From Firmicutes bacterium UBA5286 (lineage in GTDB: Bacteria > Bacillota > Proteinivoracia > UBA4975): a stretch of DNA of 64,000 bases. Position 1 is the stretch's first letter; every line of letters begins with the position of its first letter. The position numbers were made by a program, and so were the translations under genes. This document shows, piece after piece, positions 27,613-56,062 of the stretch. Below the pieces are notes generated by a model. It was given only the letters and a program-made list of their open reading frames with translations, did no database searches and was not told where the DNA came from. The stretch lies in assembly GCA_002408465.1 (NCBI GenBank), contig DHSM01000006.1, positions 131,392-195,391 of the forward strand, in the 5' to 3' direction.

Positions 27613-27624
27613 ATAATCCTGTGA

Positions 27625-29268: not shown

Positions 29269-29300
29269 AGAGCCATGAAATTACCAACTAACTGGGCTGA

Positions 29301-40861: not shown

Positions 40862-40877
40862 ACTATCCCCTCCTTAT

Positions 40878-40908
40878 CCCGCCCCCTGGGCGGGAGTATT
40901 TTTTCTCA
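40878..40908 (+). terminator. Rho-independent terminator of hsp20
   Basis: cccgcccc-ctgg-gcggg then agtatttttt. Confidence 0.7.
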
Positions 40909-40997
40909 TGTATAAACCTTAATCACTATAACATGAAGCATATAAAAAAAATGTCGAATTCTGTCTCCTGTTCACAGAAATCCTGATAAAGTACAAT

Positions 40998-41036
40998 TTA
41001 AAAAAGACCCCCCTTGCTCTCGGTAAGCGGGGGCCA
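40998..41036 (-). terminator. Terminator after the racemase gene (end of the ECF operon)
   Basis: gaccccccttgc...gcgggggcc hairpin, A6 before on plus and T-run after on minus. Confidence 0.6.
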
Positions 41037-41043
41037 ATTGATA

Positions 41044-41733
41044 TCACATATACAAGCCGGTTTTACAGACGGATAATTTAGCGTCAAGAATGGCGTTTAG
41101 TGTTACGATACCAGTTTTTATTGGGTCAATCACAGGGATGCCTACCTGGGCTTCAATCTCATCGCCAATCATTGTCATTCCCGCGCAACCCAGCAACAAA
41201 ACTTCTGCACCTTTTGCTTTCGCTGCTTTTGATGAGTTCAAAATACTGTTTCTGAGAACTTCTTTATCGTTGACAAAGTCTGCAATCGGCAAATTAAAGG
41301 TTTCCACTGAAGCAATTCGCGCTTCAAGACCATATGCTTTTACCGTAGCTTCCATCATTGGTTTGGCCTTCGTTGAAGAAGCAAGAATAGAAAACTTAAA
41401 CCCTAAGAGCAAGGCTATGGACATTGCACATTCGGCAATGCCGATTACGGGGACCGGGCAGATTTCCTTTAACGCATATAGACAGGGGTCGCCGAAACAT
41501 GCAAGCAACACGCCATCATATTGTTTCCCCGTCGCCTGCAACTGATTCAGATATTTTATAACCTCAGTTCCAGCTACTGTATAATCAACGAAACTCTCCA
41601 GAACCTCAGGCGCGTCAGGCATCTTGACAACAGTAACGGCAAGATCCGGAATGTTGAGCCTGGAAACGGTGTCTTGGATATCAGAAGTCATTTTTTCGGA
41701 GCTGTTAGGATTGATTAATAGTATTTGTTTCAT
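41044..41733 (-). CDS. Asp/Glu/hydantoin racemase family protein
   Basis: About 230 aa with paired Cys-containing motifs (LLACFGDPCL, LLLGCAGMT) typical of PF01177 racemases. Confidence 0.75.
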   Translation of the reverse strand: MKQILLINPNSSEKMTSDIQDTVSRLNIPDLAVTVVKMPDAPEVLESFVDYTVAGTEVIKYLNQLQATGKQYDGVLLACFGDPCLYALKEICPVPVIGIAECAMSIALLLGFKFSILASSTKAKPMMEATVKAYGLEARIASVETFNLPIADFVNDKEVLRNSILNSSKAAKAKGAEVLLLGCAGMTMIGDEIEAQVGIPVIDPIKTGIVTLNAILDAKLSVCKTGLYM

Positions 41734-41750
41734 ATTAACCTCCCCAGGGG

Positions 41751-42611
41751 TTATTTGCCAACGGGCTGCTTAGCAAGTTGGCGCCACTGCTCAAACATCT
41801 TTTCTGGAGAAATAATGTTATTGTCAAAGCCGACAGATTCTAAACGCTGAGCCAGCCTTGTAACTTGAGGTGGCTTAATATTGGCTTTTTCCAGCAGTTC
41901 AGTCTGGGCAAACACTTCCTGGACGCTGCCCTCTGAAAGCACGCGCCCGCCGGTCATGACTACCACACGTTTGGCATACTCGGCTACAATATCCATTTCA
42001 TGAGTAATAATGATAATTGTATGGCCATGCTTTTCGTTGAGCATTTTCAGGAATTCCATTACTTCGATAGACTGTTTGTAGTCCTGTCCCGTGGTTGGTT
42101 CATCAACAATAATTACTTTTGGACGCAAAGATAAAATGGAGGCGATGGCAATCCGCTGGCGAATACCCTTTACTTGAAAAAAAGGATGCTCTTCAAATAC
42201 TTCAGGAGTAACTCCTGCAATCGCTGCAGCCTCTGTAACCCGCTGTTTGACTTCATCTTCAGGAATCCGCAAATTGCGGGGGGCATAGGCGATTTCGTCA
42301 TAGATATTGTTATTAAACAACTGATGGTCAGGGTTTTGGAAGACATAGCCAATATTTTTGACCAGTTCCGTACAATCCTTGGTATGAACTACGTCAATGC
42401 CATTAACCTTGATTGTTCCGCTGGTAGCTTTCAGAATCCCGTTGAGGCATTTGGAAAAAGTTGTTTTGCCACAGCCGTTGGTGCCGATAAACGCAATAAA
42501 CTCTCCATCATAAAAATCAATGGATATATCTTCAATTGCTTTAGTGCCATCGGGATAGCAAAAAACTAAATCCTTGACTTCAATTATTTTGCTCTTCTCC
42601 ACATTACTCAT
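41751..42611 (-). CDS. ECF transporter ATPase, EcfA2-type
   Basis: Walker A GTNGCGKTT, Q-loop, signature, Walker B IIVDEPTTGQD. 8-nt overlap with the upstream EcfA gene. Confidence 0.85.
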   Translation of the reverse strand: MSNVEKSKIIEVKDLVFCYPDGTKAIEDISIDFYDGEFIAFIGTNGCGKTTFSKCLNGILKATSGTIKVNGIDVVHTKDCTELVKNIGYVFQNPDHQLFNNNIYDEIAYAPRNLRIPEDEVKQRVTEAAAIAGVTPEVFEEHPFFQVKGIRQRIAIASILSLRPKVIIVDEPTTGQDYKQSIEVMEFLKMLNEKHGHTIIIITHEMDIVAEYAKRVVVMTGGRVLSEGSVQEVFAQTELLEKANIKPPQVTRLAQRLESVGFDNNIISPEKMFEQWRQLAKQPVGK

Positions 42612-43458
42612 CTCCCTTCAGATAACCTTTAACAGTCTTTTCGATTTCTTCCAATTGAATGGGAGAGTGTTCGCCTTTGTTGCGGCTGGCGTTGACCATA
42701 TGCATAAATTTAATGGCGCCGGGAACGCGAATGCTCTTCTCGCTGATGAAATCCAAATCATCAAAGAATGTCTCTGTGGCGCCATATTTTTCAATCTGGC
42801 CGTCATGGACCAAAATCAGTTTATCAGCCAGTTCCACAAGCTTTTCAACATTGTGTTCGACAACAATTACAGTGAGGTTAAGCTGTTCTTTCATAATCCG
42901 CAAGAGATCGAAAACCATATCCTTGGAGATAGGATCCAACATTGAAGTTGGTTCGTCCAATATTATAATCTTAGGCTTCATAGCAATAATCGAGGCTATA
43001 GCTACTCGTTGCTTTTGCCCGCCGGAAAGGTCATAAGGAGGCTTTTCCAATAAACCTTCAATATTGGTGAGTTTGCATACCCACTCCAGACGTTTGCCAA
43101 TTTCTTCTACATCGCAGCCGATGTTTTCCAAGCCAAAGGAAATTTCCTCTTCGACGCTCATAGAAGTAAACTGGGCATCTGGGTCTGCGAAGACCATGCC
43201 AACAGTGCGTGCCAGTTCACGTGGGCTGGAATCACGGTTTAATTTTCCAAAAAGCTTGACGTCGCCCTTGTAAATACCATTATAATTTTCCGGAATAATA
43301 CCTTTTATGGCGGCAACAAGTGATGTTTTACCTGCTTCATTGGGTCCGATTACGCCGATAAATTGATTCTCTTCAATTTCCAGGTTAATTCCCTTTAATG
43401 CAGGTGTTTCTCGACCTTCATAACGCCAAATTAGATCTTTTATTTCAATTGCGTTCAT
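42604..43458 (-). CDS. ECF transporter ATPase, EcfA1-type
   Basis: Walker A GPNEAGKTS, signature LSGGQKQRVAIASI, Walker B IILDEPTSMLD. Confidence 0.85.
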   Translation of the reverse strand: MNAIEIKDLIWRYEGRETPALKGINLEIEENQFIGVIGPNEAGKTSLVAAIKGIIPENYNGIYKGDVKLFGKLNRDSSPRELARTVGMVFADPDAQFTSMSVEEEISFGLENIGCDVEEIGKRLEWVCKLTNIEGLLEKPPYDLSGGQKQRVAIASIIAMKPKIIILDEPTSMLDPISKDMVFDLLRIMKEQLNLTVIVVEHNVEKLVELADKLILVHDGQIEKYGATETFFDDLDFISEKSIRVPGAIKFMHMVNASRNKGEHSPIQLEEIEKTVKGYLKGDE

Positions 43459-43470
43459 TAGATTTCCCCC

Positions 43471-44355
43471 TTACAGATTGAACCAAGTATGGCGTAAAGT
43501 GCGATAGAGCCAAGCATTTTCAAGAGAGAAGGAATCCACCACCAGATCAAAGTACACTACTGCAAGAGAAGCGGCAATAATTGTGGCAATAATCCATTTA
43601 TCAGTACGCTGGAGTTTCATTTTATGCTTTAGATAATCCGGACGCTTTTTGCCGTCAACTTTGCCAGATAATTCTGTGCCCTTTGAAAAAAGCCCAATGC
43701 TGATATCTTCACATTTACGAATGGACAGAGTAAACAGAGGCACAAGGTACATAGAAAAATGTTTTACCTTGCCGCCAAAGGAAAGGTTTCTTACATCTAG
43801 GCCACGGGCTTGTTCCGCTTCCCTGATGATAGCGTAGTCCTCCAAAAAAATGCCGGCGGAACGCAAAATCAAGCCAAAAAAGTAAGATACGATGAAGGGA
43901 AATCCTAATGTCCGGAAACCTACAAGGATGTCCCGTTCCCTGTTAGTCGAAAAATAAAAAATCGATGCAAGCAAGAGAGCAATGATGCGAATATAGATAC
44001 TCATTGCCCACATAAATGAATGGAAATGAGCGTTAAATCTGCCGATGGAAAAGATGATTAGACCTTCTTCTGTATTAATGGGGAAGAAGAAATAAGTCAG
44101 ATTGATAATTATTCCGACAGTGATCATCATCGGCAAAAAGATTTTCAGGCGGCTCAAATTAACATGAGAATATTTGAGCATAAAGAAGATAATTATAATA
44201 AACAAAACATTATATTCAGGAGCTTCGATAAAAAGCGGGAGAAGACCAGTAGCTAAAAACAAGATTAGACGAGCAACTGGATGCAAAGCATACATTGGCG
44301 ATTCAGCAGGAATATAGCCGATAATTGTTCTTTGCATTTTCCTGGTTTGTTCCAT
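43471..44355 (-). CDS. ECF transporter transmembrane T component (EcfT/CbiQ family)
   Basis: 5-6 TM. Start at MEQTRKMQ preceded by GGAGGA. Confidence 0.8.
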   Translation of the reverse strand: MEQTRKMQRTIIGYIPAESPMYALHPVARLILFLATGLLPLFIEAPEYNVLFIIIIFFMLKYSHVNLSRLKIFLPMMITVGIIINLTYFFFPINTEEGLIIFSIGRFNAHFHSFMWAMSIYIRIIALLLASIFYFSTNRERDILVGFRTLGFPFIVSYFFGLILRSAGIFLEDYAIIREAEQARGLDVRNLSFGGKVKHFSMYLVPLFTLSIRKCEDISIGLFSKGTELSGKVDGKKRPDYLKHKMKLQRTDKWIIATIIAASLAVVYFDLVVDSFSLENAWLYRTLRHTWFNL

Positions 44356-44396
44356 ATCTATCCTCCGATCGTTGATGCAAATTTTTATGAAGAAAG

Positions 44397-44437
44397 CCAC
44401 AAATATTGTTGTGTGATTGATTGGGAATTCCCTATCA
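44397..44437 (-). promoter_or_regulatory. 13-bp perfect-stem hairpin between the S-component and EcfT genes
   Basis: ttgtgtgattgat-tgggaattcccta-tcaatcacacaac, with no T-run after it on the coding strand. Confidence 0.5.
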
Positions 44438-44512
44438 ATCACACAACTTTTTAGATTAAATTATTTGACGATTAGATCACTCTATTAACAGCAAATTGAT
44501 AAATGCTGTAAC

Positions 44513-45121
44513 CTATGCCCAGTATCCTTTGCAAAAAGTCTTTGTTCTGATAACAATCGGTGAGATGAACTTCAGCATGACTACACCCAAAACCCAGGAT
44601 GCGATTGAATTGCCAACGAACCAGCCGATGAAAACAGTGAGATGTGCACCTGGAGCGATTAAGCCGAACCATTTTAAGACAAAACTTCCCCAACCAGCGC
44701 CAAGAATATTCGAAACGATAATACCCCATACTGTAAAAATAATCCAGTCTTTTGCTGACTTCAGACGCGGGTCAGCCTTGAACTGGCGGAATGCCCAGCC
44801 AGCAATAATAGATTGGGCCAGGTTTCCGGGAATGTAGGCCAGTGATACAGGAAGCGGAGCTGAGCCAGAGATCATATTGGAAATAATGGGGAAAATGAAA
44901 CCTGCAATGCCTCCCCAGGCACCATACCAAATAGAACCAACGCTTTGAATAGCTTGGCCTGGCCAAAAAGCAGTAACATAGCCAAGGGGGACAGCAAGGC
45001 TACCAAAAGTACCCACGACAACGCCAATCCCTGCAAACAGCGCCATCATAACAAAATGCGCTAAACCAGGTTTGCGAACCTCGCCCTCTTGCAGTTGCCA
45101 GACACTTCCGACGTTTGCCAT
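44513..45121 (-). CDS. ECF transporter substrate-specific S component (substrate unknown)
   Basis: 202 aa, about 6 TM and Gly/Trp-rich, placed first in an S-T-A-A operon. AGGAGG RBS 9 nt upstream. Confidence 0.55.
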   Translation of the reverse strand: MANVGSVWQLQEGEVRKPGLAHFVMMALFAGIGVVVGTFGSLAVPLGYVTAFWPGQAIQSVGSIWYGAWGGIAGFIFPIISNMISGSAPLPVSLAYIPGNLAQSIIAGWAFRQFKADPRLKSAKDWIIFTVWGIIVSNILGAGWGSFVLKWFGLIAPGAHLTVFIGWFVGNSIASWVLGVVMLKFISPIVIRTKTFCKGYWA

Positions 45122-45386
45122 TTTTCGTGGCCTCCTAATTAGTATTTAGCCAAACAAATTTTTTTTGGCTTGGCTAAGAATACCATAATATTTTTTAGTT
45201 GTAAACACCTTTTTTTTGGTAAGAAAAGAGCCGCTTCCTGAAAAAACATGATAACCCTTCAGGATAGACCATTCTCTTACAGGTGCAATTTTATAATGCC
45301 CAAGATATTCAGTTCTTATATCTAAATTAGAAAACCATTGACATAAAAAATAAATAAGCAGCATCAAAAATATGTATGAAAATCTG

Positions 45387-45414
45387 TTGACTGTCCTCTA
45401 AAATATGTTATTAT
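45387..45414 (+). promoter_or_regulatory. Promoter of the ygeX-ygeY-ygeW operon (TTGACT, 16-nt spacer, TATTAT)
   Basis: Near-consensus hexamers about 70 nt upstream of the first ATG. Confidence 0.5.
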
Positions 45415-45425
45415 GGGTTTAGAGT

Positions 45426-45442
45426 CCTAAAAATGTTTTAGG
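45426..45442 (+). promoter_or_regulatory. Operator-like 7-3-7 palindrome just downstream of the -10
   Basis: CCTAAAA-atg-TTTTAGG. Confidence 0.4.
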
Positions 45443-45484
45443 GTAACGCAATTATTTTTAGCAGATTAGACTTTAGAAAGGAGC

Positions 45485-46702
45485 ATGGTTTACGTGGAGA
45501 AAATTAAATGGACTACTAATCAATTGCCGAAATCTAAGGACCGCAACCTGGAGATCATGTCGCTGGAGAATGTTAAACATGCCAGAGCTTTTCACCAAAG
45601 CTTTCCTCAGTATTCAGTTACTCCATTGGCACAGCTAAATAATATGGCAAGTTATTTGGGTGTCAACGGTATATATGTCAAGGATGAATCCTACCGCTTC
45701 GGATTAAATGCCTTTAAAGTCTTGGGCGGTTCTTTTGCAATGGGGCGCTATATTGCTCAGCAGCTAGGGAAAGATATTTCCGAGATGACTTACGATTACC
45801 TTACTTCCAAGCAACTCCGTGACGAATTCGGTCAGGCGACTTTTTTTACCGCCACTGATGGCAACCACGGCCGCGGCGTAACATGGGCCGCCAGCAAGCT
45901 GGGGCAAAAATCTGTCGTGCATATGCCCAAAGGTACCTGCAAACCTCGATTTGACAATATTGCAAAAGAGGGAGCAAAGGTAACGATAGAGAATGTTAAC
46001 TATGATGAATGTGTTCGCTTAGCAGCCGAGGACGCAGCTGCCACCCCCCATGGGGTAATTGTCCAGGACACTGCCTGGGAAGGTTATGAAGAAATCCCTG
46101 CCTGGATCATGCAGGGTTATGGCACAATGGCATTGGAAGCAGTGGAACAACTGAAAGCAGCTGGGGTTAAGCGTCCCACTCATGTCTTTGTCCAGGCTGG
46201 CGTTGGGTCCCTGGCAGGCGCAGTTCAAGGATTTATTGCCAATATGTATCCAGACAATCCCCCCACCACGGTAATCATGGAAGCCCAGGCTGCCAACTGC
46301 CTGTATCAATCTGCCGTAGCTGCCGACGGACAAGCGAGAGCTGTAGGCGGAGATTTGCAGACAATAATGGCCGGACTGGCATGCGGCGAAGCTAACACTA
46401 TTTCCTGGGACATTCTTAAAAATCACAGCAGCATCTTCGTCTCCTGCCCTGACTGGGTAGCAACTAAAGGCATGAGAATGCTGGCAGCCCCCTTCAAAGG
46501 CGATTCTCAGGTTGTCTCCGGTGAAAGCGGCGCTGTAGGCATGGGCTTACTGGCAACCTTAATGCAGGATGAAAACTATAAAGATTTGCGGGATGCAATC
46601 GGACTAAACAAAGACAGTATTATCTTATTATTTTCCACCGAAGGCGACACCGATCCAGAAAGCTACAAAAAAATCGTCTGGGGAAATACTGAATCTTGTT
46701 AA
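45485..46702 (+). CDS. dpaL: Diaminopropionate ammonia-lyase (YgeX/DpaL, PLP-dependent)
   Basis: PLP fold with the YgeX-type N-terminus (FHQSFPQYSVTPL...VKDESYRFGLNAFKVLGG) and a TDGNHGRGV glycine loop. The true start may be the internal MSLENV (about 45557). Confidence 0.8.
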   Translation: MVYVEKIKWTTNQLPKSKDRNLEIMSLENVKHARAFHQSFPQYSVTPLAQLNNMASYLGVNGIYVKDESYRFGLNAFKVLGGSFAMGRYIAQQLGKDISEMTYDYLTSKQLRDEFGQATFFTATDGNHGRGVTWAASKLGQKSVVHMPKGTCKPRFDNIAKEGAKVTIENVNYDECVRLAAEDAAATPHGVIVQDTAWEGYEEIPAWIMQGYGTMALEAVEQLKAAGVKRPTHVFVQAGVGSLAGAVQGFIANMYPDNPPTTVIMEAQAANCLYQSAVAADGQARAVGGDLQTIMAGLACGEANTISWDILKNHSSIFVSCPDWVATKGMRMLAAPFKGDSQVVSGESGAVGMGLLATLMQDENYKDLRDAIGLNKDSIILLFSTEGDTDPESYKKIVWGNTESC

Positions 46703-46746
46703 GTCTGATTTAAATAAAAATTATAAAAATCAAGGAGGTTACGTTA

Positions 46747-47940
46747 ATGGATTTCAAGAAAATCAAAGCAGCTGCAGAAGGTTATCAGGAAGATATGATA
46801 AAATTTCTGCGGGATTTAGTTGCGATTCCCGGCGAAAGCTGCGGCGAAGAAGGCGTCATCAAGCGCGTTGAAGCCGAAATGAAAAAGGTTGGTTTTGACA
46901 AGGTAGAAATCGACCTCATGGGCAATGTCCTGGGCTATATGGGCACAGGCAAAACCCTGATTGCTTATGACGCCCACGTGGACACCGTTGGCATTGGCAA
47001 TATCGATACTTGGGAATTTGATCCCTATAAAGGCTTTGAAACCGAAACTGAAATCGGCGGCCGCGGCACTTCTGACCAGTTAGGCGGCATTGTCTCCTCT
47101 GTTTATGGCGCAAGGATCATGAAAGATCTTGGCCTTCTTTCCGACAAATACACCGTCCTGGTAACAGGCACTGTGCAGGAAGAAGACTGTGACGGCCTGT
47201 GCTGGCAGTACATTATTAACGAAGATAAAGTAAAACCTGAGTTTGTCGTAGTTACTGAACCTACTGATGGCAATATTTATCGCGGCCAGCGGGGCAGAAT
47301 GGAAATCCGTGTTGATGTCAAGGGCGTTTCCTGCCATGGTTCCGCTCCCGAACGGGGCGATAACGCTATTTACAAGATAGCCGACATACTTCAGGAAATC
47401 CGCGCCTTAAACGACAAACTCCATTACGATCCTTTCCTTGGCAAGGGCACAGTCACCACCTCACAGATTTTCTATACATCCCCCTCCCGCTGTGCAGTAG
47501 CCGACTCCTGTGCAGTAAGTTTGGACCGCCGCCTCACCCATGGCGAAACTTATGAGATGGCGTTAGATGAAGTCCGCAATCTGCCTTCCTGCAAAAAATA
47601 CGGCGCAGTCGTCAGCATGTACAAGTATGATCGTCCCTCCTGGACCAACCTGGTCTACCCCACCGACTGCTACTTCCCCAGCTGGGTAATTCCTGAAGAT
47701 CATCCTGCCACCCAGGCGATGGTAGAAGCCTACAAAGGCATGTATGGCGAACCGAAGGTTGACAAGTGGACCTTCTCTACCAATGGTGTTTCCATCATGG
47801 GACGCTACGGTATTCCCGTAATCGGTTTCGGCCCCGGCAAAGAAGCTCAGGCACATGCTCCAAATGAAAAGACCTGGAAAGAAGACCTGGTACGCTGCGC
47901 AGCCGTTTACGCTGCAATGCCCCCTCTGTACTGCAAATAA
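46747..47940 (+). CDS. ygeY: YgeY-type M20-family peptidase/amidohydrolase
   Basis: M20/DapE-like metal-binding residues (H...D...E). AAGGAGG RBS. Conserved ygeW-ygeX-ygeY-type neighbourhood. Confidence 0.8.
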
Positions 47941-47976
47941 ATTTACTGTAAATTAATAGTAAAGGAGTCGACTGAT

Positions 47977-49173
47977 TTGGATCCAAAATTACATGGGTTT
48001 ATTGACAGATTAAATGCACTAAATTTCAAAGACATGTACAACAACGATTTTTTCCTAACCTGGGAGAAAACTGATGATGAGCTGGAAGCGGTTTTTACTA
48101 TAGCTGACGCCCTGCGCTATATGCGTGTAAACAATATCTCCGTGAAAATTTTTGAAAGCGGCCTGGGCATCTCATTGTTCCGGGACAACTCCACCAGGAC
48201 CCGGTTTAGCTTTGCCTCCGCCTGCAACTTGCTGGGATTGGAGGTACAGGATCTGGAGGAAGGAAAATCCCAGATTGCTCATGGCGAAACTGTAAGAGAA
48301 ACCGCCAACATGGTTTCCTTTATGGCTGATGTCATCGGTATCCGTGATGACATGTACATCGGCAAAGGGAACGCGTACATGCGTGAAGTTTCCAAGTCGA
48401 TTCGTGAAGGCCACAAAGATGGCGTTTTGGAACAGACTCCCACTTTAGTCAATTTGCAATGCGATATCGACCATCCCACCCAGTGCATGGCCGATATGCT
48501 CCACATTATTCATCAGTTTGGCGGCGCGGAAAACCTCAAGGGTAAAAAAATCGCCATGACTTGGGCCTATTCTCCCTCTTATGGCAAGCCCCTTTCAGTT
48601 CCTCAGGGTGTCATTGGCCTGATGACCCGTTTTGGCATGGATGTTGTCCTGGCCCATCCTGAAGGCTATGAAATAATGCCTGACGTTGAAGAAGTCGCCA
48701 AGAAACATGCTCAGGCCACCGGCGGCACCTTTACCAAGACCAATAGCATGGCGGAAGCCTTTAAGGATGCTGATATCGTTTATCCCAAGAGCTGGGCTTC
48801 TTTTGCCGCTATGGAAAAGAGAACTAATTTGTATGCTGCAGGCGATACCGACGGCATCAATGCCCTGGAAAAAGAATTGCTGGCCCAGAACGCTCAGCAC
48901 AAAGATTGGTGCTGTACTGAAGAACTGATAAAGACCACCAAAGATGGCAAGGCCCTTTACCTCCACTGTCTGCCTGCAGATATCAATGATATCTCCTGCA
49001 AGAATGGCGAAGTTGAAGCCTCTGTCTTTGACCGGTATCGCACCCCTCTGTACAAAGAAGCTTCTTTCAAGCCCTATATCATTGCAGCTATGATTTTCCT
49101 GGCCAAATGCAAAGATCCTCAGGCAATATTGAAGGCATTGGCTGAGCGCGGCACCCAGCGCTGGATGAAATAA
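47977..49173 (+). CDS. ygeW: YgeW-type knotted carbamoyltransferase
   Basis: STRTRFSF carbamoyl-phosphate-binding motif and an HCLPA-type motif (LHCLPAD). Confidence 0.85.
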   Translation: MDPKLHGFIDRLNALNFKDMYNNDFFLTWEKTDDELEAVFTIADALRYMRVNNISVKIFESGLGISLFRDNSTRTRFSFASACNLLGLEVQDLEEGKSQIAHGETVRETANMVSFMADVIGIRDDMYIGKGNAYMREVSKSIREGHKDGVLEQTPTLVNLQCDIDHPTQCMADMLHIIHQFGGAENLKGKKIAMTWAYSPSYGKPLSVPQGVIGLMTRFGMDVVLAHPEGYEIMPDVEEVAKKHAQATGGTFTKTNSMAEAFKDADIVYPKSWASFAAMEKRTNLYAAGDTDGINALEKELLAQNAQHKDWCCTEELIKTTKDGKALYLHCLPADINDISCKNGEVEASVFDRYRTPLYKEASFKPYIIAAMIFLAKCKDPQAILKALAERGTQRWMK

Positions 49174-49189
49174 TTGTCACAGATCATTA

Positions 49190-49230
49190 TTTTAGCGAAG
49201 CTCACCTGCAAATGCCGGTGAGCCTCGCTA
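49190..49230 (+). terminator. Stem-loop / possible attenuator between ygeW and the carbamate kinase gene
   Basis: agcgaagctcacc-tgcaaatgcc-ggtgagcctcgct, a 13-bp stem with one mismatch and a weak U-tract. Confidence 0.4.
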
Positions 49231-49259
49231 ATTTCATAACTCAAATGGAAATAAGGTGA

Positions 49260-50201
49260 TTGATAATGGGAAAAAGACTAGTAATCGCACTGGGAGGCAA
49301 CGCTCTGGGCAACACAGCGGCAGAACAGCTGGTGCTTGTAGCCCAGACAGCAAAGCCGATTGTTGACCTGATTCAGCAAGGGAACGAAGTAATCATTGCC
49401 CATGGCAACGGCCCCCAGGTGGGCATGATCAATCTTGGCATGAGCACCGCTCATGCTGCAGGCGCCATCAAAGCTGAGATGCCTTTCCCCGAGTGTGGAG
49501 CCATGAGCCAGGGCTATATCGGCTATCATCTTCAAAACAGCATCAGCAATGAGCTGGCAGCAAGAGCCATCAAGAAAAGCGTCGCCACAATAGTCACACA
49601 AGTGCTGGTGGACGAAAATGATTCGGCTTTCCAAAACCCGACAAAGCCAATTGGCGCATTCTACACTAAGGAACAGGCTGAAAAAATAGCCGCGGACAAA
49701 GGCTATACCATGGTAGAAGATGCAGGCCGCGGCTACCGCCAGGTAGTCCCCTCCCCCAAGCCGGTAGCGGTTGTAGAAAAGGATGTGGTGGCCGCCCTGG
49801 TAAACGCCGGCGTGGTTGTAATTACTGCCGGGGGAGGCGGAATCCCTGTCATTCAAAAGGATAATCGCCTAGTGGGCGTTCCCGCTGTCATCGACAAAGA
49901 CTTCGCTTCCGCTAAGGTCGCTGAACTGCTGGATGCAGATGCCCTCATAATCTTGACTGCTGTAGACCGGGTCGCCATCAATTGGGGCAAACCCAACCAG
50001 AGATCTTTGGCAGAAATGACCGTTGCCCAAGCCGAACAATACTGCAGAGAAGGTCATTTTGCCCCTGGCAGCATGTTGCCAAAGGTGAAAGCTGCCATCG
50101 GCTTTGCCCAATCGAAAGCAGGACGCAGGGCAATTATTGCCTCTCTGGAAAATGCCTCCCTCGCCCTTCGCGGCGAAAGCGGGACGATAATTCAGCAGTA
50201 A
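49260..50201 (+). CDS. arcC: Carbamate kinase
   Basis: N-terminal KRLVIALGGNAL and an amino-acid-kinase fold. Confidence 0.9.
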   Translation: MIMGKRLVIALGGNALGNTAAEQLVLVAQTAKPIVDLIQQGNEVIIAHGNGPQVGMINLGMSTAHAAGAIKAEMPFPECGAMSQGYIGYHLQNSISNELAARAIKKSVATIVTQVLVDENDSAFQNPTKPIGAFYTKEQAEKIAADKGYTMVEDAGRGYRQVVPSPKPVAVVEKDVVAALVNAGVVVITAGGGGIPVIQKDNRLVGVPAVIDKDFASAKVAELLDADALIILTAVDRVAINWGKPNQRSLAEMTVAQAEQYCREGHFAPGSMLPKVKAAIGFAQSKAGRRAIIASLENASLALRGESGTIIQQ

Positions 50202-50235
50202 TGGCAAGCGAAATTATTTTTCCGGAGGTTATCTG

Positions 50236-51075
50236 ATGCGCCAAGTGACATTAGGCCTAATCCAAATGGAAAGCTTTCTCGGCGATAAAGAAAGGAATTT
50301 GGCCCTGGCAATTCAGCTAGTAAGGGATGCGGCCAGCCAAGGGGCAAAGTTAATTTGCCTGCCGGAAATGTTTGTAACCGGCTACCATTTAGACAGTCTT
50401 GGCGATTCTCTTTACAGCCTGAGTGAAGAATTAAACGGGCCCACTATTGCCGCGTTGGGAAAACTGGCCAAAAAAATAAACGCTTATATCATTGCCCCCT
50501 TGGCCATAAAGAATCCTGACCATGGCCTCCTCCTCAACGTCGCTGTCCTCATTGACGATTGCGGCGAGGTGCAAGGAGTATATTCAAAAAATCATCTCTT
50601 TGGGGATGATGATAAATATTTTACCACCAGCGGCGAATATCCCGTCTTTAAGACCAAGTATGGAACCATCGGCATCATGATCTGCTGTGACAACAACTAT
50701 CCCGAACCAGCAAGAATTCTTGCTCTCCAAGGCGCTGAAATTATATTTACAACTGCTGCCTGGAGACTCCAGGAGGCAGACCTCTGGCGCCTGTACAACT
50801 GCTGCCGGGCGGCAGAAAACAACGTATTTGTCGCCGGCATCAACGCCTTTGGCCGCCTGGAAGGATTGTTTTTATTCGGCCACAGCATGCTGGTTAATCC
50901 CAGGGGCCAGATCCTTGAGGAAGTCAATGAAGACGGCAGCAGCGTCCTGGTCCGGACCATCGACTTAGACGAAATAGCGGCAATTCGCCAACACTCCCCC
51001 GGCCTCAAAGACCGTCACCCCCAAGAATATGGCGCTCTTTGTCAGCCTGCAGACCTGAATGGCATTCTCAAGTAA
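50236..51075 (+). CDS. Carbon-nitrogen hydrolase (nitrilase-superfamily amidohydrolase)
   Basis: E-K-C triad context (LICLPEMF, ...K..., GIMICCDNNYPE). Confidence 0.85.
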   Translation: MRQVTLGLIQMESFLGDKERNLALAIQLVRDAASQGAKLICLPEMFVTGYHLDSLGDSLYSLSEELNGPTIAALGKLAKKINAYIIAPLAIKNPDHGLLLNVAVLIDDCGEVQGVYSKNHLFGDDDKYFTTSGEYPVFKTKYGTIGIMICCDNNYPEPARILALQGAEIIFTTAAWRLQEADLWRLYNCCRAAENNVFVAGINAFGRLEGLFLFGHSMLVNPRGQILEEVNEDGSSVLVRTIDLDEIAAIRQHSPGLKDRHPQEYGALCQPADLNGILK

Positions 51076-51115
51076 ATTATTTGCCGGGTGAATTGCAGCA
51101 GGTATTTTTTCAATA

Positions 51116-51160
51116 ATAAACGACCTGCTTTCACAAATGTGAAGGGCAGGTCGTTTAATC
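51116..51160. terminator. Strong hairpin between the convergent nitrilase and yheO-like genes
   Basis: aaacgacctgc-tttcacaaatgtgaagg-gcaggtcgttt (11-bp perfect stem). No clear U-tract on either strand. Confidence 0.45.
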
Positions 51161-51173
51161 CTTGTTGAAGGGT

Positions 51174-51809
51174 TTACTTCTTAACATCGATATAATTATA
51201 CAGAGTATACTTGGAAATACCGAAATACCTTGAAATTTTATCGCCGCTCTTGCTGATTAACAGCGCGCCGGAGTCATACAAGTACTGCAAAGCTTTGATC
51301 TTGTCATCTTTGTTCATCAGGGGCACCGGCTTGCCAACCAGGCGAACGCTTTGTTCAAGCAGTTCGTCCAAGAGATCATTGACATTTTGCACAATCGGCT
51401 CAGGTTCTTTGTCGCCATTCTCTGTCTTGGTCAGGTTAGTCAGAGTATGCGCTGCCATTAACAGGGCAGTCATATCATAGTTGATCGACAGTATATTGGC
51501 CGCTTGCCCATTTTCGTCATAAACATAAATTGTGCTGGATTTGATTATCTTTTGGTCCTTAGTAGTCATTAAGTAATTGAGATGGTCCTCAAGCACAGCA
51601 TCCTTATTGCGCAGGGCCTCCAGCACCACATGGGAAGGGCCATCTCCCACCCTCCGTGAAGTTACATGCCCGTTTTCAATTGCTACAATGGAGCTTTCAA
51701 TATTGCCTTTGGTTAAATCGTGAACTACCACTTCACAATTATCCCCGAAATGCGCGGCGATCCCTTTGGCCAGGCGCTTTAAAAAATCTATTGTCAACTG
51801 GTTGCTCAT
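51174..51809 (-). CDS. YheO/DauR-like transcriptional regulator (PAS-like sensor + C-terminal HTH)
   Basis: N-terminal FLKRLAKGIAAHFGDNCEVVVHDL (YheO-type PAS_6) and C-terminal ISKYTLYNYI HTH. Start at MSNQL preceded by AAGGAG. Confidence 0.7.
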   Translation of the reverse strand: MSNQLTIDFLKRLAKGIAAHFGDNCEVVVHDLTKGNIESSIVAIENGHVTSRRVGDGPSHVVLEALRNKDAVLEDHLNYLMTTKDQKIIKSSTIYVYDENGQAANILSINYDMTALLMAAHTLTNLTKTENGDKEPEPIVQNVNDLLDELLEQSVRLVGKPVPLMNKDDKIKALQYLYDSGALLISKSGDKISRYFGISKYTLYNYIDVKK

Positions 51810-51860
51810 ATCCCCACTCCTTTTCAATTAACATGTCGCAAATATGAATTTTAGTGTAAA

Positions 51861-51875
51861 CTACCCATAGGGTAG
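51861..51875. promoter_or_regulatory. 6-3-6 palindrome in the divergent yheO/hydantoinase control region
   Basis: CTACCC-ata-GGGTAG. Confidence 0.4.
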
Positions 51876-51930
51876 ATTGTTTGCACCCTAATTATAAAGT
51901 AATCACATAAAATTATCTAAGGATGATTAG

Positions 51931-53319
51931 ATGAAAAAGCTAATAAAAAACGGAACCATTGTTACTCCAAGTTTATCATATCAAAGTAACATACTGATTG
52001 AAAATGGCATTATCGCCGCCATCCAGCCTGGGCTGGAAACGTCTGATACAGAAATTTATGATGCCAGGGGCTGCCGGCTGTTTCCCGGGTTTATTGATGC
52101 CCACACACATTTAGATATGGCTATGGGCCCCACTGTCACCGCAGACGACTTTCGGACTGGCACAAGGGCGGCTCTTGCTGGCGGCACTACATCAATCATT
52201 GATTTCGCCACCCAAGATAAAGGCGACACCCTGACCCATGCCCTGGGAAAATGGCATCGCAAGGCTGATGGCATTTCTGCCTGCGATTATGGCTTCCATA
52301 TGGCAATTATAGATTGGAATCCTGAAATATGCAACGAAATCCAATCAATTGCAGATGCAGGAGTAACTTCCTTTAAAGTCTATCTCGCCTATGACAACCT
52401 GCACGTCAGCGACAGCGCAATCTATGAAATCCTGCGCCGCGTAGGCCAGGTCCATGGAATTGTCGGCGCTCACTGCGAAAACGGAGACATCATCAGCAAG
52501 CTGATAGATACTAACCTTCGCCGCAACAATACCCAGCCTTGCTTTCACGCCCAGTCCCGGCCGGACCTGGCAGAAGCAGAAGCCATCTCCCGCTTCACTT
52601 ACATTGCGCAAATGGCAGAAGTTCCTGTCAACATCGTTCATCTCAGTAGCGAGGCCGGCTTAATGGCAGCTAAGAGCGCTCGCCAGCGGGGAGCAGATAT
52701 CTATATCGAATCCTGCCCCCAGTATTTTATTCTTGATGACAGCTGCTATTACCTGCCGGGATTTGAAGGGGCGAAATTTGTCTGTTCGCCGCCAGTACGT
52801 TCAAAACACAGTCAGACTGCTCTCTGGAACGCTCTTTCTGCAGGCAGCATTGATACCATCTCTACAGATCATTGCAGTTTTAACTGGAAAGGGCAAAAAG
52901 AACTGGGCCGCAATGATTTCAGTCAAATTCCTAATGGCCTGCCGGGAATTGAACACCGTCCCGTACTCCTGTACACCTACGGAGTTGCGGCAGGCCGCAT
53001 TAGCGAAAATCAATTTGTCGCCAGTTTATCTGAGAACACCGCCCGCCTTTTTGGCATGTTTCCGCAAAAAGGGCAAATAGCAGTTGGCAGCGATGCAGAT
53101 ATTGTCGTCTGGAATCCCAGCTGTCAGGGCACGCTCACGGCTCAAAACCAGGTGCAAAATGTCGACTATACCCCCTACGAAGGCCTGAAGATTCAAGGTG
53201 GAGCTAAGGCTGTTTTCTTGCGCGGAGAGCTGGCAGCCGAAAACGGCAAAGTGCTCTTCGAAAATCAGGGGAAATATATACATCGCCATAGCTGCGACTA
53301 TTACCATAAAAATTCGTAA
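51931..53319 (+). CDS. Cyclic amidohydrolase (D-hydantoinase/dihydropyrimidinase family)
   Basis: Metal-binding motifs FIDAHTHLD, carbamylated-Lys region FKVYLAY, and HxH...D. Confidence 0.85.
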   Translation: MKKLIKNGTIVTPSLSYQSNILIENGIIAAIQPGLETSDTEIYDARGCRLFPGFIDAHTHLDMAMGPTVTADDFRTGTRAALAGGTTSIIDFATQDKGDTLTHALGKWHRKADGISACDYGFHMAIIDWNPEICNEIQSIADAGVTSFKVYLAYDNLHVSDSAIYEILRRVGQVHGIVGAHCENGDIISKLIDTNLRRNNTQPCFHAQSRPDLAEAEAISRFTYIAQMAEVPVNIVHLSSEAGLMAAKSARQRGADIYIESCPQYFILDDSCYYLPGFEGAKFVCSPPVRSKHSQTALWNALSAGSIDTISTDHCSFNWKGQKELGRNDFSQIPNGLPGIEHRPVLLYTYGVAAGRISENQFVASLSENTARLFGMFPQKGQIAVGSDADIVVWNPSCQGTLTAQNQVQNVDYTPYEGLKIQGGAKAVFLRGELAAENGKVLFENQGKYIHRHSCDYYHKNS

Positions 53320-53334
53320 GCTTGCCAGAAAGAG

Positions 53335-53393
53335 ACCACCGCTCACTACCGGACCCCTCCGGCGTGAGCGGTGGCTTTTTTTTAGCAAAGTCT
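53335..53393 (+). terminator. Rho-independent terminator of the hydantoinase gene
   Basis: ccaccgctcac-taccggacccctccggc-gtgagcggtgg followed by T8. Confidence 0.8.
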
Positions 53394-53407
53394 ATCTGTG
53401 CACAAAT

Positions 53408-54823
53408 TTACTTCGTTAACTTTCTGTGCAAAAACTGTCCTGAACCTTTTTCCCCCAAGAATTTGCCGTCTTCAACCAAGATATCGCCACGGCGAATAGT
53501 CATAACCGGCCATCCCTTCGGGGTGATTCCTTGATAAATTGTATAGCCAATGCCGTAATGAAGGGTTTCATCAGACAAAGTTACTTCCTTTTCAGGATCG
53601 ACTATGACCATGTCCGCATCAAAACCAACCTGGATAGCTCCCTTCTGAGGATATAGGCCAAATGTTTTCGCAGGATTCAATGAAGTCATCTTCACTAGCT
53701 GATTCCAGGTGATGCGGCCTTTATTAATTCCTTCGGAAATAAGCAGGGCCAGCCGCTCTTCCACTCCACAGGAACCGCTGATGACCTTGGTAAAGTCGGG
53801 CTTCACCGAACCGTCTTCATTGACCTCCAGGTTCTGTTCCTTGATTTCCCGGGTAAAGGTGCAATTGTCAGAGCCAATAATGGTCAGAGTTCCGTCAGCC
53901 AGGCCTTCCCAGAGCTTATTCAGGTCCTTTTCGCTGCGCAATGGCGGGCTCATCATATTCAGGTGGCCATCTGCAGTCTGATATACTTCATCAGTAAGAG
54001 TCAGATAATGGGGGCAAGTTTCAGCAGTTACTTTGATGCCGGCCTTCTGGGCGTTATAAACAGCGTCCATGGCTTCGCCGGTGGAAAGGTGGAAAATATA
54101 AATTGGGCAATCCATGAACTTGGCGTAGGCGATAATGCGGTTAACTGCTTCCAGCTCGCAGATATTCGGTCTAGACAGGGGGAAGGCACTCCAGGCACGA
54201 TTGCCTTCCTGGAACAGTTTCTCGGTGCAGTATTCTACCAAGGCGTTGCTTTCGCAATGAAATCCCGGCATCGCGCCCTGGGCCCGGGCTTCGGCCATAA
54301 CTTTCAAAATATCGTCGTCCTCAATCATAACTCCAGATTTGCGGTAAGTCATAAAGAGTTTAAATGTAGGACAGCCATAGGCGACAATATCCTTGATCTC
54401 GTCAATAATCTTGTCATTGGCTTCGACGAATTTGGCATGGATGCCGTAATCAACTGCGCAAGCCTTCATTTCTTCACGCCGCTCTTTGATTGCTTCCAGT
54501 ACTGACTTGCCTTTTTTGGACTCAGAGAAATCCAGCAATGTAGTGACCCCGCCAAAGGCTGCACAGCGGCTGGCGGTATAGAAATCTAAGGTGTCATAGA
54601 TGCCGTTTACACCGGCATGAATATGACAGTGGGGATCGATAATGCCTGGGAGCACATATTTCCCAGCAGCGTCAATAACCCGTTTGGCGCTATCAAAAAT
54701 ACCCGTTTCCGAGATGGCAACAATTTTGGAATCCTTGATCGCTATGTCAGCTAAGTAAGACGAATCAGCGGAAACGACAGTGCCTCTTCGGATGATTAAA
54801 TCAAACATCGACTTGACCTCCAT
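53408..54823 (-). CDS. Dihydropyrimidinase/D-hydantoinase (second paralogue)
   Basis: GIIDPHCHIH, FKLFMTY (carbamylated Lys), AHAE-type signatures, about 470 aa. Confidence 0.85.
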   Translation of the reverse strand: MEVKSMFDLIIRRGTVVSADSSYLADIAIKDSKIVAISETGIFDSAKRVIDAAGKYVLPGIIDPHCHIHAGVNGIYDTLDFYTASRCAAFGGVTTLLDFSESKKGKSVLEAIKERREEMKACAVDYGIHAKFVEANDKIIDEIKDIVAYGCPTFKLFMTYRKSGVMIEDDDILKVMAEARAQGAMPGFHCESNALVEYCTEKLFQEGNRAWSAFPLSRPNICELEAVNRIIAYAKFMDCPIYIFHLSTGEAMDAVYNAQKAGIKVTAETCPHYLTLTDEVYQTADGHLNMMSPPLRSEKDLNKLWEGLADGTLTIIGSDNCTFTREIKEQNLEVNEDGSVKPDFTKVISGSCGVEERLALLISEGINKGRITWNQLVKMTSLNPAKTFGLYPQKGAIQVGFDADMVIVDPEKEVTLSDETLHYGIGYTIYQGITPKGWPVMTIRRGDILVEDGKFLGEKGSGQFLHRKLTK

Positions 54824-54907
54824 ATTAGATATAATGTTGTAGCTGAAACTGGCCTTAGGATTAAATAAGGTCTATCACCTTCCGGCAAGTTCTTTATTTA
54901 CAACAAT

Positions 54908-54936
54908 ATTTTAAAGCCAAATCAAAAATTTGTCAA
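54908..54936 (-). promoter_or_regulatory. Sigma-A promoter of the second hydantoinase gene (TTGACA, 17-nt spacer, TAAAAT)
   Basis: Plus-strand tgtcaa at 54931-54936 and atttta at 54908-54913 give consensus hexamers on minus. A 7-bp inverted repeat (attgtct/agacaat, 54954-54976) lies about 20 bp upstream. Confidence 0.55.
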
Positions 54937-55039
54937 GGTAGCCGCCTCATTCTATTGTCTGCGGCCCCAAGACAATTCATGTATGAAATTCTTGCCCGCT
55001 ATAATATTTTCCCCGGAAAGGGAAAATAGTTTTTGCCAT

Positions 55040-55070
55040 AAAAAAACACCACACTGTGGTGTTTTAAATA
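55040..55070 (-). terminator. Terminator after the YabE-like gene (bidirectional-looking)
   Basis: A7-caccacactgtggtg-TTTT. Confidence 0.65.
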
Positions 55071-55090
55071 GCATGGGCCGTCAACTAGTT

Positions 55091-56062
55091 TTACTGAATG
55101 ATCTCAATCCTCACCTTGCCTACTCCGTCGGCGTACAGGCCGATTTCCTTGGCCGCTGCCGCCGAAAGGTCGATAATCCTGCCGGGAGTAAAAGGCCCCC
55201 TGTCGTTAATCTCAACCACCACAGTCTTTCCTGTGGCCAGGTAGGTTACTTTTACTCTCGTGCCAAAGGGCAGTGTCTTGTGGGCGGCTGTCAACGCATA
55301 CATGTCAAAGGGAACGCCGCTGGCCGTTCTGCTGCCGTGGAGTTCCGCCCCGTAGTATGAGGCGACACCTACCACGGCTTCCCCGGTTGTGCCTCTGGAG
55401 ACTGTTCGAGTCCCCTTGAGGATGACCCCCGCCACCGGTTGAGCAAGTATGCTCTCACTGACTATGCGCCTGGACACTTCTGCACCGTCATGGAATATGA
55501 CTTCATAGGTTATCAGCTTGCTGCCGTCCTTAGCCTGGGTCTGCACCTTTTTCTTGCCCTGGCCCAAGGTGGGATCGCTTTTATACACTGTCTTAGCCGC
55601 TATAGCCACTTCTTCACTGACCAGCTGGCGGTCCACCCGGATGATTTCCACTGTCAGCCCTTCAGTCAGCCTTTGCTCCAGCGGGCAGCTGAGCAAATCG
55701 CCCTCAACACTGATACCTTGTTCCGCCAACAGTCCTTCAACGGTCCCTGCCCAGGAAATGACTGACAGTCCCCGGCCATCCCCCTTAATGACAACTTTTG
55801 TCCCCTTCTCAATAATAATGCAGTTGGATTGAGTTTCCTTGTCCAACCCAGGAAAGACCCGCTCATAATCAGCATCCAGGGTTATATTAGCTTCAGCCAG
55901 AATATCCGCCACCAGAGTCTTGGTTGTAAGAACCTCCAGCCTCCCAGCTCCCGACAGAATTGTTACCAGCCGCGGTTGAACCTGAACCGGATTGATGAAG
56001 ACAAGGGCTAAGATGGCCGCAAAAACAGCAGCCTTAATCAAATATTTTTTCTTGTCCTTCAT
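55091..56062 (-). CDS. DUF348-G5-3D (RlpA-like) domain protein, YabE-like
   Basis: N-terminal TM, repeated DUF348-like segments, a G5 domain, and a C-terminal 3D/DPBB region ([22 protein letters not shown]...). Start at MKDKK after GGGGGTGA. Confidence 0.75.

Follow-up and report, generated by a model that had tools for sequence, protein, structure and literature searches.

The reductive uric-acid (2,8-dioxopurine) pathway was described in two studies of 2025 (PMC12507026; bioRxiv 10.1101/2025.04.24.650524) and a commentary (PMC12990295), and each of its enzymes is now assigned. XdhD/XdhAC, a molybdenum (selenium-dependent) enzyme, reduces uric acid to 2,8-dioxopurine, which is dearomatised and opened by YgfK (or UacX) together with SsnA to give ureidomethylhydantoin and a little 5-ureidodihydrouracil; HyuA converts the hydantoin to 2,3-diureidopropionate, YgeW splits off one ureido group by phosphorolysis as carbamoyl phosphate, and carbamate kinase (YqeA) uses the latter to form ATP (PMC12507026; bioRxiv 10.1101/2025.04.24.650524). 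The second ureido group is removed by YgeY (PMC12507026), and YgeX turns diaminopropionate into pyruvate and ammonia (PMC12507026; bioRxiv 10.1101/2025.04.24.650524). YgeW and YqeA together made ATP in vitro (bioRxiv 10.1101/2025.04.24.650524), and in C. difficile YgeW is substituted by UacY, a member of the D-aminoacylase family (PMC12507026). Here we compare with these systems a gene cluster located at positions 41044-54936 of a 64-kb stretch of DNA from Firmicutes bacterium UBA5286 (contig DHSM01000006.1; hereafter the window). We lean towards interpreting it as a composite catabolic cluster in which the lower half of the uric-acid pathway is joined to a module for import, racemization, hydantoin opening and decarbamoylation, with expression repressed by a YheO-type regulator encoded within the cluster.

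The cluster largely matches the system described in 2025. It encodes the same lower enzymes as the E. coli genes ygeW-ygeX-ygeY-hyuA-yqeA...ygfK-ssnA-ygfM-xdhD and the clusters of C. sporogenes and C. difficile, and the same chemistry, leading from ureidomethylhydantoin to pyruvate and ATP, is expected. By contrast with those clusters, neither XdhD/XdhAC, YgfK/UacX and SsnA nor a YgeV-type σ54 regulator is encoded in the approximately 84 kb examined, whereas a CN-hydrolase, a second hydantoinase, a racemase and an importer of the energy-coupling factor (ECF) type are present in addition. None of these four additions is mentioned in the published pathway accounts that we checked. What appears to be new is a predicted pair of regulator and operator, an architecture restricted to the lower half of the pathway, and an ECF/racemase/hydantoinase module with an unassigned family of substrate-capture (S) components.

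Genes were identified with NCBIfam equivalog models and their curated cut-offs, Pfam, and identities to E. coli proteins (Table 1). All eight genes named in the original prediction were found where it had placed them and under correct names, and its assignment of ygeW, ygeX and ygeY to anaerobic catabolism of purine-derived N-heterocycles is supported by the gene identities. The lower-pathway set is complete in that ygeX, ygeY, ygeW, arcC and a D-hydantoinase all exceed the equivalog cut-offs; the HyuA, YgeW, YqeA, YgeY and YgeX orthologues share 39-71% identity with their E. coli counterparts. The accompanying statement that the substrates of this gene set are poorly defined is outdated because every enzyme was assigned in 2025. 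The set had also been regarded as expanded, which holds for the CN-hydrolase and hydantoinase-2 but not for carbamate kinase and hydantoinase-1, both of which are canonical. In the strain set of Liu et al. carbamate kinase is encoded inside 33 of 39 clusters, and in a different chromosomal region in some strains (bioRxiv 10.1101/2025.04.24.650524). Hydantoinase-1 shares 48-64% identity with the HyuA proteins whose genes adjoin ygfK-ssnA in relatives, and 39% with E. coli HyuA; as judged by sequence it is a HyuA orthologue that would open ureidomethylhydantoin or 5-ureidodihydrouracil (function after PMC12507026). Hydantoinase-2 is only 32-36% identical to the whole HyuA group, and 79% identical to the sole hydantoinase seen in the contig of a third lineage, L092. 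D-hydantoinases are the best solved relatives of both paralogues.

In three lineages the CN-hydrolase gene comes fifth in the ygeX operon, 34 nucleotides (nt) after that of carbamate kinase. Residues Glu44, Lys118 and Cys150, which we take to be the catalytic triad of the family, are invariant in the alignment of this putative hydrolase. Its solved relatives include β-ureidopropionase-type nitrilases, N-carbamoylputrescine amidase and D-carbamoylases, and it scores below every NCBIfam equivalog cut-off (best model aguB, 141 bits against 410). The nearest outgroup homologues, at 56-62% identity, adjoin NCS1 permeases, and in two of four loci (L093 and L150) also a carbamate kinase, a context that fits an N-carbamoyl amidohydrolase. 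The protein is probably an N-carbamoyl (ureido) amidohydrolase. The four outgroup loci (L094:2782-10825, L093, L149 and L150) carry, besides the NCS1 permease, a LacI regulator in three cases, and L094 also holds a ferredoxin-type DHO_dh (PydA/UacX-like), an amidohydrolase and a gene resembling that of ornithine carbamoyltransferase. By their gene content these loci look like another anaerobic N-heterocycle pathway.

Genes for the upper half of the pathway were sought in the window by tblastn with E. coli XdhA, XdhD, YgfK, YgfM and SsnA and by Pfam scans, which covered open reading frames (ORFs) of at least 150 amino acids (aa) without a longer overlapping ORF, together with an Hsp20 gene of 140 aa and a single overlapped ORF of 125 aa. 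In the window and within 10 kb past each end (~84 kb in total), none of xdh, ygfK, ssnA and selD was found; the check for nearby selD and xdh genes proposed with the original prediction was therefore negative. Because xdhD, ygfK and ssnA are not nearby, import of a ring-opened purine intermediate is the most likely role of the cluster. In cultures of mutants, pathway intermediates build up in the supernatant; hence they can leave cells and reach others.

On this basis we propose that the core proteins (hydantoinase-1/HyuA, YgeW, carbamate kinase, YgeY and YgeX) would carry out the lower half of the reductive uric-acid pathway. Ureidomethylhydantoin, a 5-substituted hydantoin, would be converted to 2,3-diureidopropionate; phosphorolysis of one ureido group would yield carbamoyl phosphate and then ATP, and hydrolysis of the other would lead to 2,3-diaminopropionate and from there to pyruvate and ammonia. 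The added module would comprise the ECF importer, a hydantoin/allantoin-type racemase, hydantoinase-2 and the CN-hydrolase as a decarbamoylase. The importer may take up a ring-opened purine intermediate set free by other members of the community, the racemase would make both enantiomers usable, and the material would be fermented. The regulator, which combines a PAS domain with a helix-turn-helix (HTH) domain, would sit on CTAAAA-N3-TTTTAG and block RNA polymerase until a pathway intermediate occupies the PAS domain. Gene identities, gene neighbourhoods and motif conservation are results of the present analysis. The reactions are assigned by analogy, from the work of others on E. coli and Clostridium enzymes; binding of the regulator to the motif, repression, the imported substrate and the inducer are what we infer.

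The YheO-type regulator and its candidate operator

That the middle of the cluster holds a dedicated YheO-type regulator, as originally predicted, is supported by its domains and by its genomic linkage. Both PAS_6 and HTH_22 exceed their gathering scores in the 211-aa protein, and in the predicted structure a PAS fold precedes a helical domain for DNA binding. No solved structure was found by sequence search; VqmA, a PAS-HTH protein, is the only full-length structural analogue that was found. We place the translational start at the ATG at 51809, which is preceded by the ribosome-binding site AAGGAG: the identical 211-aa protein occurs in public assemblies and a longer version starting at TTG does not. 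The organism itself, an uncultured lineage of Clostridia, is also represented in assemblies of fermentation and other metagenomes and in the metagenome-assembled genome GCA_002410985.1.

The regulator has thousands of homologues, the closest of which are 58-93% identical to it. Loci of 80 orthologues in this range were collected from named genomes (Anaerotruncus, Flavonifractor, Pseudoflavonifractor, Intestinimonas, Hydrogenoanaerobacterium, Limiplasma, Butyricicoccus and others), and in 71 of them one or more uricolytic genes lie beside the regulator gene. The latter is divergent from ssnA-ygfK, often followed by hyuA, in 54 of the 80 loci and from ygeX-ygeY-ygeW-yqeA in 10, and it is followed by ygeX or ygeY in 12. 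This linkage argues for the protein being dedicated to control of the pathway in these Clostridia, where by position its gene holds the role that the gene of the σ54 activator YgeV holds in E. coli. With other members of the YheO/DauR family (E. coli YheO, P. aeruginosa DauR, C. jejuni Cj1387c) it shares the two Pfam domains and the fold of PAS plus helical domain; it differs from them in having an orthologue group specifically linked to the uricolytic clusters found in Oscillospirales-type Clostridia, and in having a predicted operator. A literature search on YheO returned no link to purine catabolism, and the pathway literature that we checked mentions neither a regulator nor an operator and does not treat regulation outside E. 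coli.

The candidate operator is a palindrome directly downstream of the predicted ygeX promoter (palindrome 1). It was found where the original prediction had placed it, and its status as an operator candidate is supported by conservation. A recurring CTAAAAAATTTTTAG was read upstream of the 80 regulator orthologues. When CWAAAAANTTTTTWG was scanned at up to one mismatch in 76 loci retained after a lenient redundancy filter, among which a few near-duplicate contigs remain, 45 matches were found in the 96 kb made up of the regions up to 400 nt upstream of cluster genes and nine in the remaining 1.13 Mb. The upstream regions thus hold 0.47 matches per kb and the rest of the loci 0.008, a roughly 60-fold difference; first-order Markov resampling of the upstream regions gave a mean of 0.54 matches and a maximum of three. 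The motif precedes a cluster gene in 40 of the 76 loci. Several contigs carry two copies, one beside the regulator gene and one upstream of ygeX about 8 kb away, and this arrangement looks like the pattern of a regulon. The E. coli cluster has no copy of the motif. Nor do 365 kb of ECF loci without the regulator contain it, the one exception being a fragment from the species of the window. The motif thus tracks the regulator and not the enzymes.

In the window the operator core is the sole match at up to one mismatch within 64 kb, and in the strain variant L003 it differs in a spacer base only. No room for a further promoter is left between it and the ygeX start codon. As strings, neither this palindrome nor palindrome 2, which lies between the regulator gene and that of hydantoinase-1, is unusual: the window contains 23 perfect 6+3+6 and nine perfect 7+3+7 palindromes. 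The significance of palindrome 1 therefore derives from its conservation across genomes only, which makes it a good candidate for the operator of the regulator. The search for further palindrome copies proposed with the original prediction yielded none at up to one mismatch in the window and its 10-kb extensions; in relatives the motif of palindrome 1 is enriched upstream of cluster genes, but palindrome 2 is not conserved in L007 or L092. Palindrome 2 does exist at the predicted place, but we rejected it as an operator, given that it is a single copy at chance level (one of the 23), has lost its symmetry in L007, whose regulator is 93% identical, and is absent from L092. An operator-like site at 51839-51854 in the same intergenic region, with a 4-base spacer and two mismatches, is of uncertain status. 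Its counterpart in L003 (9956-9971) is a perfect CTAAAA-TTCA-TTTTAG, which makes the difference a strain-level polymorphism.

Operator copies with two mismatches were also seen 135-1057 nt upstream of an ABC (ATP-binding cassette)-ATPase gene in L035 (12698), L036 (3684), L037 (10337), L038 (3220 and 4108) and L039 (12017). Given these copies, the regulon of Flavonifractor-type loci may take in the transporter downstream of the regulator.

An importer and racemase operon divergent from ygeX

Divergent from ygeX and absent from the original prediction is an operon of five genes (41044-45121) that we count as part of the cluster. Its first gene encodes a 202-aa membrane protein that belongs to no Pfam or NCBIfam family and for which sequence search returned no solved relative. 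The AlphaFold2 model of this protein (predicted local distance difference test, 78; predicted template modelling score, 0.78) comprises six helices. The top 13 matches of a fold search in the PDB were all ECF S components (ThiT, BioY, RibU, FolT and one unnamed protein) with template modelling scores of 0.51-0.71, and the next matches were noise. By its predicted structure, the protein has the fold of an ECF S component. The operon thus combines the six-helix S fold, the T component and the two ABC ATPases that mark a dedicated ECF transporter. Among NCBIfam models the ATPases match ECF_ATPase_2 and ECF_ATPase_1 best, but their scores of 260 and 235 bits fall short of the equivalog cut-offs (330 and 315). 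The last gene encodes a predicted racemase whose best solved relatives are allantoin and hydantoin racemases (3qvj, 5lfd and 2eq5). As in group I ECF transporters such as BioMNY and CbiMNQO, genes for S, T and two ATPases form one operon, and the predicted fold is that of the S components ThiT, RibU, BioY and FolT. Unlike in these systems, the S component falls outside the Pfam and NCBIfam families, and the neighbouring racemase and hydantoinase genes point to a hydantoin-like catabolic substrate and not to a vitamin or metal.

The ECF operon and ygeX share the intergenic region that bears the operator. Two matches to CWAAAAANTTTTTWG with two mismatches lie by the predicted ECF promoter, one in its spacer (45184-45198) and one at 45151-45165, the latter with a closer match in strain L003; they constitute weak evidence. 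A 72-aa ORF placed between ygeX and the S-component gene by some gene callers was rejected because its low-complexity translation is unconvincing.

Homologues of the S component with 60-89% identity occur in Actinobacteria, Fusobacteria, Chloroflexi and many Firmicutes. A scan of metagenomes recovered 54 loci, and counts were made on the 24 independent ones of at least 6 kb. A racemase gene directly follows the ATPase genes in 11 of the 24, a hydantoinase gene is present in 12, and nine have both; ygeX and a ygeW-like gene each occur in three, and ssnA, ygfK and xdh in none. The hydantoinases of these loci mostly match hydantoinase-2 best (35-51%). In two loci, L123 and L132, the importer, racemase and hydantoinase are accompanied by ygeX, a ygeY-like M20 hydrolase and an Amidohydro_3 protein, which in L123 is a member of the D-aminoacylase family like UacY. 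Their gene sets thus cover uptake and all steps that lead from a hydantoin to pyruvate, but no step before the hydantoin. The lineage L092 has ygeY-ygeW-arcC-CN-hydrolase, the regulator and the hydantoinase-2 orthologue, and its 14 kb contain no hydantoinase-1, ssnA or ygfK.

Classical hyu gene sets encode a D-hydantoinase, an N-carbamoyl-amino-acid amidohydrolase and a hydantoin racemase along with an NCS1 permease, for instance Mhp1. Proteins of all three classes are encoded here, with the CN-hydrolase as the probable amidohydrolase, but uptake is assigned to an ECF transporter instead of an NCS1 permease, and the set is tied into an operon that forms diaminopropionate and harvests carbamoyl phosphate. 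No report of an ECF transporter linked to a hydantoin racemase was found in the literature. In UBA5496, the closest relative (L007:14241-15946), ygeX is reduced to an ORF of 214 aa, and the racemase gene comes directly after it.

Mode of regulation and alternative explanations

The direction of control may be read from the placement of the sites. The ygeX site of the window is centred at about +13 and the hydantoinase-2 site of L092 lies directly downstream of the -10 element, placements which by their geometry would only be able to hinder RNA polymerase. In relatives the site is centred at -56/-57 of the regulator's own promoter, at -59/-60 of ssnA, and at -58 to -60 or -70/-71 of ygeX, where a second, weaker A/T palindrome abuts the -35 element. 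We consider a ligand-released repressor the somewhat more probable mode of action because it explains both layouts. A ligand-dependent activator that uses a class I site in relatives, and that in the window either acts as a dual regulator or has left the +13 site as a rewired remnant, is possible but distinctly less probable. It would account for the tightly fixed site centres, of which the two at ygeX lie one helical turn apart, and VqmA, the full-length structural analogue, is an activator. Against it stand the +13 site and the L092 site, as well as the near-consensus quality of the promoters beside the sites (scores of 10-13). DauR of Pseudomonas aeruginosa, the one characterised member of the family, is reportedly a repressor; a literature search on DauR operators returned nothing relevant. 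We regard it as improbable that palindrome 1 is not the site of the regulator at all, and that it instead acts as an upstream element rich in A/T, is bound by a global regulator, or forms a hairpin in the RNA of the ygeX leader. The motif is short and A/T-rich, the operator is predicted from sequence, and in the window it would be transcribed, all of which agrees with such an origin. Its enrichment upstream of cluster genes and its association with the regulator gene speak for an operator, however, and the copies of relatives lie upstream of the promoters and are thus untranscribed. Moreover, the ygeX leader RNA is no more stably folded than its shuffled versions (z = 0.49), and no riboswitch or other known RNA of Rfam matched the region 40800-55400 at E ≤ 1.

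As for the cluster as a whole, the organism may be an ordinary, complete uric-acid degrader whose upper genes (xdhD/xdhAC, ygfK or uacX, ssnA, selenium and molybdenum cofactor genes) are located in another part of the genome and whose added module is accessory or serves another substrate; this we consider a serious though less probable alternative. According to published surveys, clusters differ in layout and pathway genes are not always kept together (PMC12507026; bioRxiv 10.1101/2025.04.24.650524). With the regulators of full-pathway genomes (L007 and L092 aside) that of the window shares 58-71% identity, which suggests the same ligand. On the other side, the position directly beside the regulator that ssnA-ygfK occupies in 54 of 80 relatives is empty in the window, in L007 and in L092, and the ECF module did not co-occur with upper-pathway genes in any of the 24 independent loci. 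An unlikely alternative is that two unrelated pathways happen to be adjacent, with hydantoinase-2, the CN-hydrolase, the racemase and the ECF importer forming a generic hydantoin/dihydropyrimidine set for a substrate unrelated to diaminopropionate. The classical hydantoinase process relies on the same three enzyme types, whose solved relatives here are D-hydantoinases, D-carbamoylases/β-ureidopropionases and hydantoin racemases. In addition, the outgroup homologues of the CN-hydrolase reside beside NCS1 permeases and not beside ygeW, and many ECF loci have other hydrolases (α/β-hydrolases) in place of ygeX. Two unrelated pathways are nevertheless difficult to reconcile with the position of the CN-hydrolase gene in the ygeX operon of three lineages, with the operator-bearing region common to the ECF operon and ygeX, and with several independent ECF loci that contain ygeX, ygeY-like, ygeW-like or UacY-like genes.

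Several points weigh against the composite, repressed cluster that we favour. The fixed site at -56 to -60 or -70 of most relatives is a classical activator position and fits a repressor less well, and the pairing of regulator and motif is itself a sequence-based prediction. In the window, the promoters of the regulator/hydantoinase-1 region and of hydantoinase-2 are without a good operator, so that part of the cluster may escape control. The imported substrate is deduced from enzyme logic, and since the examined portion of the genome amounts to about 84 kb, xdhD, ygfK and ssnA could be located elsewhere, as in an ordinary uric-acid degrader. Finally, ygeX of L007 looks truncated, and its 5' half, the promoter, the operator and all four ECF genes are missing, which means either that the module is not stably kept or that the assembly is faulty.

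The PAS domain is highly conserved between the organism of the window and full-pathway genomes. We therefore predict that the effector is not urate but a mid-pathway intermediate common to both types of organism. It is tempting to speculate further, as a tentative extension of the composite cluster, that the locus is dedicated to salvage of secreted 5-ureidomethylhydantoin or a close relative. A new family of ECF S components would take up this compound, the racemase would lift a stereochemical bottleneck, and fermentation would yield pyruvate and, by way of carbamoyl phosphate, ATP. Carriers of the lower half would then cross-feed on uric-acid degraders, and the Oscillospirales-type pathway would be under a PAS-HTH sensor acting at CTAAAA-N3-TTTTAG alongside the ssnA RNA.

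The 2,8-dioxopurine pathway is pursued as a gut-bacterial route to lower urate, and strain differences in urate consumption have been put down to gene regulation by Liu et al. (bioRxiv 10.1101/2025.04.24.650524). The motif is conserved in many related gut and digester bacteria, and the predicted regulator and operator in Anaerotruncus, Flavonifractor, Pseudoflavonifractor, Intestinimonas and relatives offer a testable handle on this regulation. Lower-half-only clusters with an importer and racemase of their own suggest that intermediates are exchanged within communities. The racemase is a candidate for the enzyme behind the stereochemistry question left by the commentary (PMC12990295), and the S component would be among the few ECF substrate-capture proteins for a catabolic substrate, as opposed to a vitamin or metal.

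An ssnA RNA (RF03031, 47-56 bits) followed by a terminator-like hairpin precedes the ssnA-ygfK operon of relatives (L017:9719-9766, L035:9740-9787, L054:1674-1722 and L009:9761-9808). It occupies the same regulator-divergent intergenic region as the palindromic operator, and no copy is present in the window. To our knowledge this RNA has no assigned ligand, and a literature search for one found none; its position ahead of the upper-pathway genes points to a metabolite of the purine pathway.

Promoters, terminators and other features of the window

The coordinates of all features are listed in Table 1. The consensus-like hydantoinase-2 promoter described in the original prediction was found as described, looks real and is kept in the two related lineages L007 and L092; in L092, but not in the window, CTAAAAAATTTTAG directly follows it. 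Promoter-like matches as such are not enriched in the window (29 against 22.5 ± 4.7 expected). The CN-hydrolase and regulator genes converge on a GC-rich hairpin, as judged by its sequence a probable bidirectional terminator.

Table 1. Features of the cluster region, in window coordinates
Feature	Position	Strand	Basis
Hydantoin/allantoin-type racemase, last gene of operon	41044-41733	-	PF01177 Asp/Glu/hydantoin racemase, E 3.7e-48
ECF-type ABC ATPase	41751-42611	-	PF00005
ECF-type ABC ATPase	42604-43458	-	PF00005
ECF T component, CbiQ family	43471-44442	-	PF02361; TIGR02454 56.8 bits, under cut-off
Predicted ECF S (substrate-capture) component, 202-aa membrane protein	44513-45121	-	Fold match of AlphaFold2 model
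Predicted ECF operon promoter, TTTACA-17-TATTCT, extended TG	45205-45177	-	Promoter scan
Predicted ygeX-ygeY-ygeW-arcC-CN-hydrolase operon promoter, TTGACT-16-TATTAT	45387-45414	+	10/12 matches plus TG
Palindrome 1, CCTAAAAATGTTTTAGG	45426-45442		Directly after TTGACT-16-TATTAT
Candidate operator core, CTAAAA-ATG-TTTTAG	45427-45441		Perfect half-sites; centre ~+13 from predicted transcription start
ygeX, 2,3-diaminopropionate ammonia-lyase	45485-46702	+	TIGR03528 635 bits, cut-off 532; 48% identity to E. coli YgeX
ygeY, M20 hydrolase removing the last ureido group	46747-47940	+	TIGR03526 682 bits; 71% identity to E. coli YgeY; function: PMC12507026
ygeW, knotted carbamoyltransferase	47977-49173	+	TIGR03316 786 bits; 66% identity to E. 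coli YgeW
Carbamate kinase (YqeA equivalent, arcC), ATP-forming step	49260-50201	+	TIGR00746 388 bits, cut-off 358; 58% identity to E. coli YqeA
CN-hydrolase	50236-51075	+	PF00795, E 8e-55
GC-rich hairpin AACGACCTGC...GCAGGTCGTT between convergent CN-hydrolase and regulator genes	51119-51156		Read from sequence; not listed by terminator scan
YheO/DauR-family one-component regulator, 211 aa	51174-51809	-	PAS_6 (PF08348) 122 bits, E 1.5e-35; HTH_22 (PF13309) 63.7 bits, E 1.6e-17
Degenerate operator-like site, CAAATATGAATTTTAG	51839-51854		4-base spacer, 2 mismatches; status uncertain
Palindrome 2, CTACCCATAGGGTAG	51861-51875		Regulator/hydantoinase-1 intergenic region
Hydantoinase-1 (predicted HyuA orthologue)	51931-53319	+	TIGR02033 574 bits, cut-off 393
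Intrinsic terminator after hydantoinase-1, CCACCGCTCAC...GTGAGCGGTGG then T run	53336-53383	+	Read from sequence
Hydantoinase-2, distinct paralogue	53408-54823	-	TIGR02033 454 bits, cut-off 393
Predicted hydantoinase-2 promoter, TTGACA-17-TAAAAT	54936-54908	-	11/12 matches

Outside the cluster, genes for a DUF3798 binding protein, an ABC ATPase and two BPD_transp_2 permeases are found at 26479-31833 (+), about 13 kb from the cluster and with unrelated genes in between. A T-box leader (RF00230, 122 bits) at 24768-24987 (-) lies upstream of the tyrosyl-tRNA synthetase gene (23489-24799), and two genes encode Mrr_cat restriction-endonuclease domains (20540-21064, -; 34314-35321, +). A low-GC stretch, with 39% at 12001-14000, coincides with a set of ABC/FtsX-like transporter genes.

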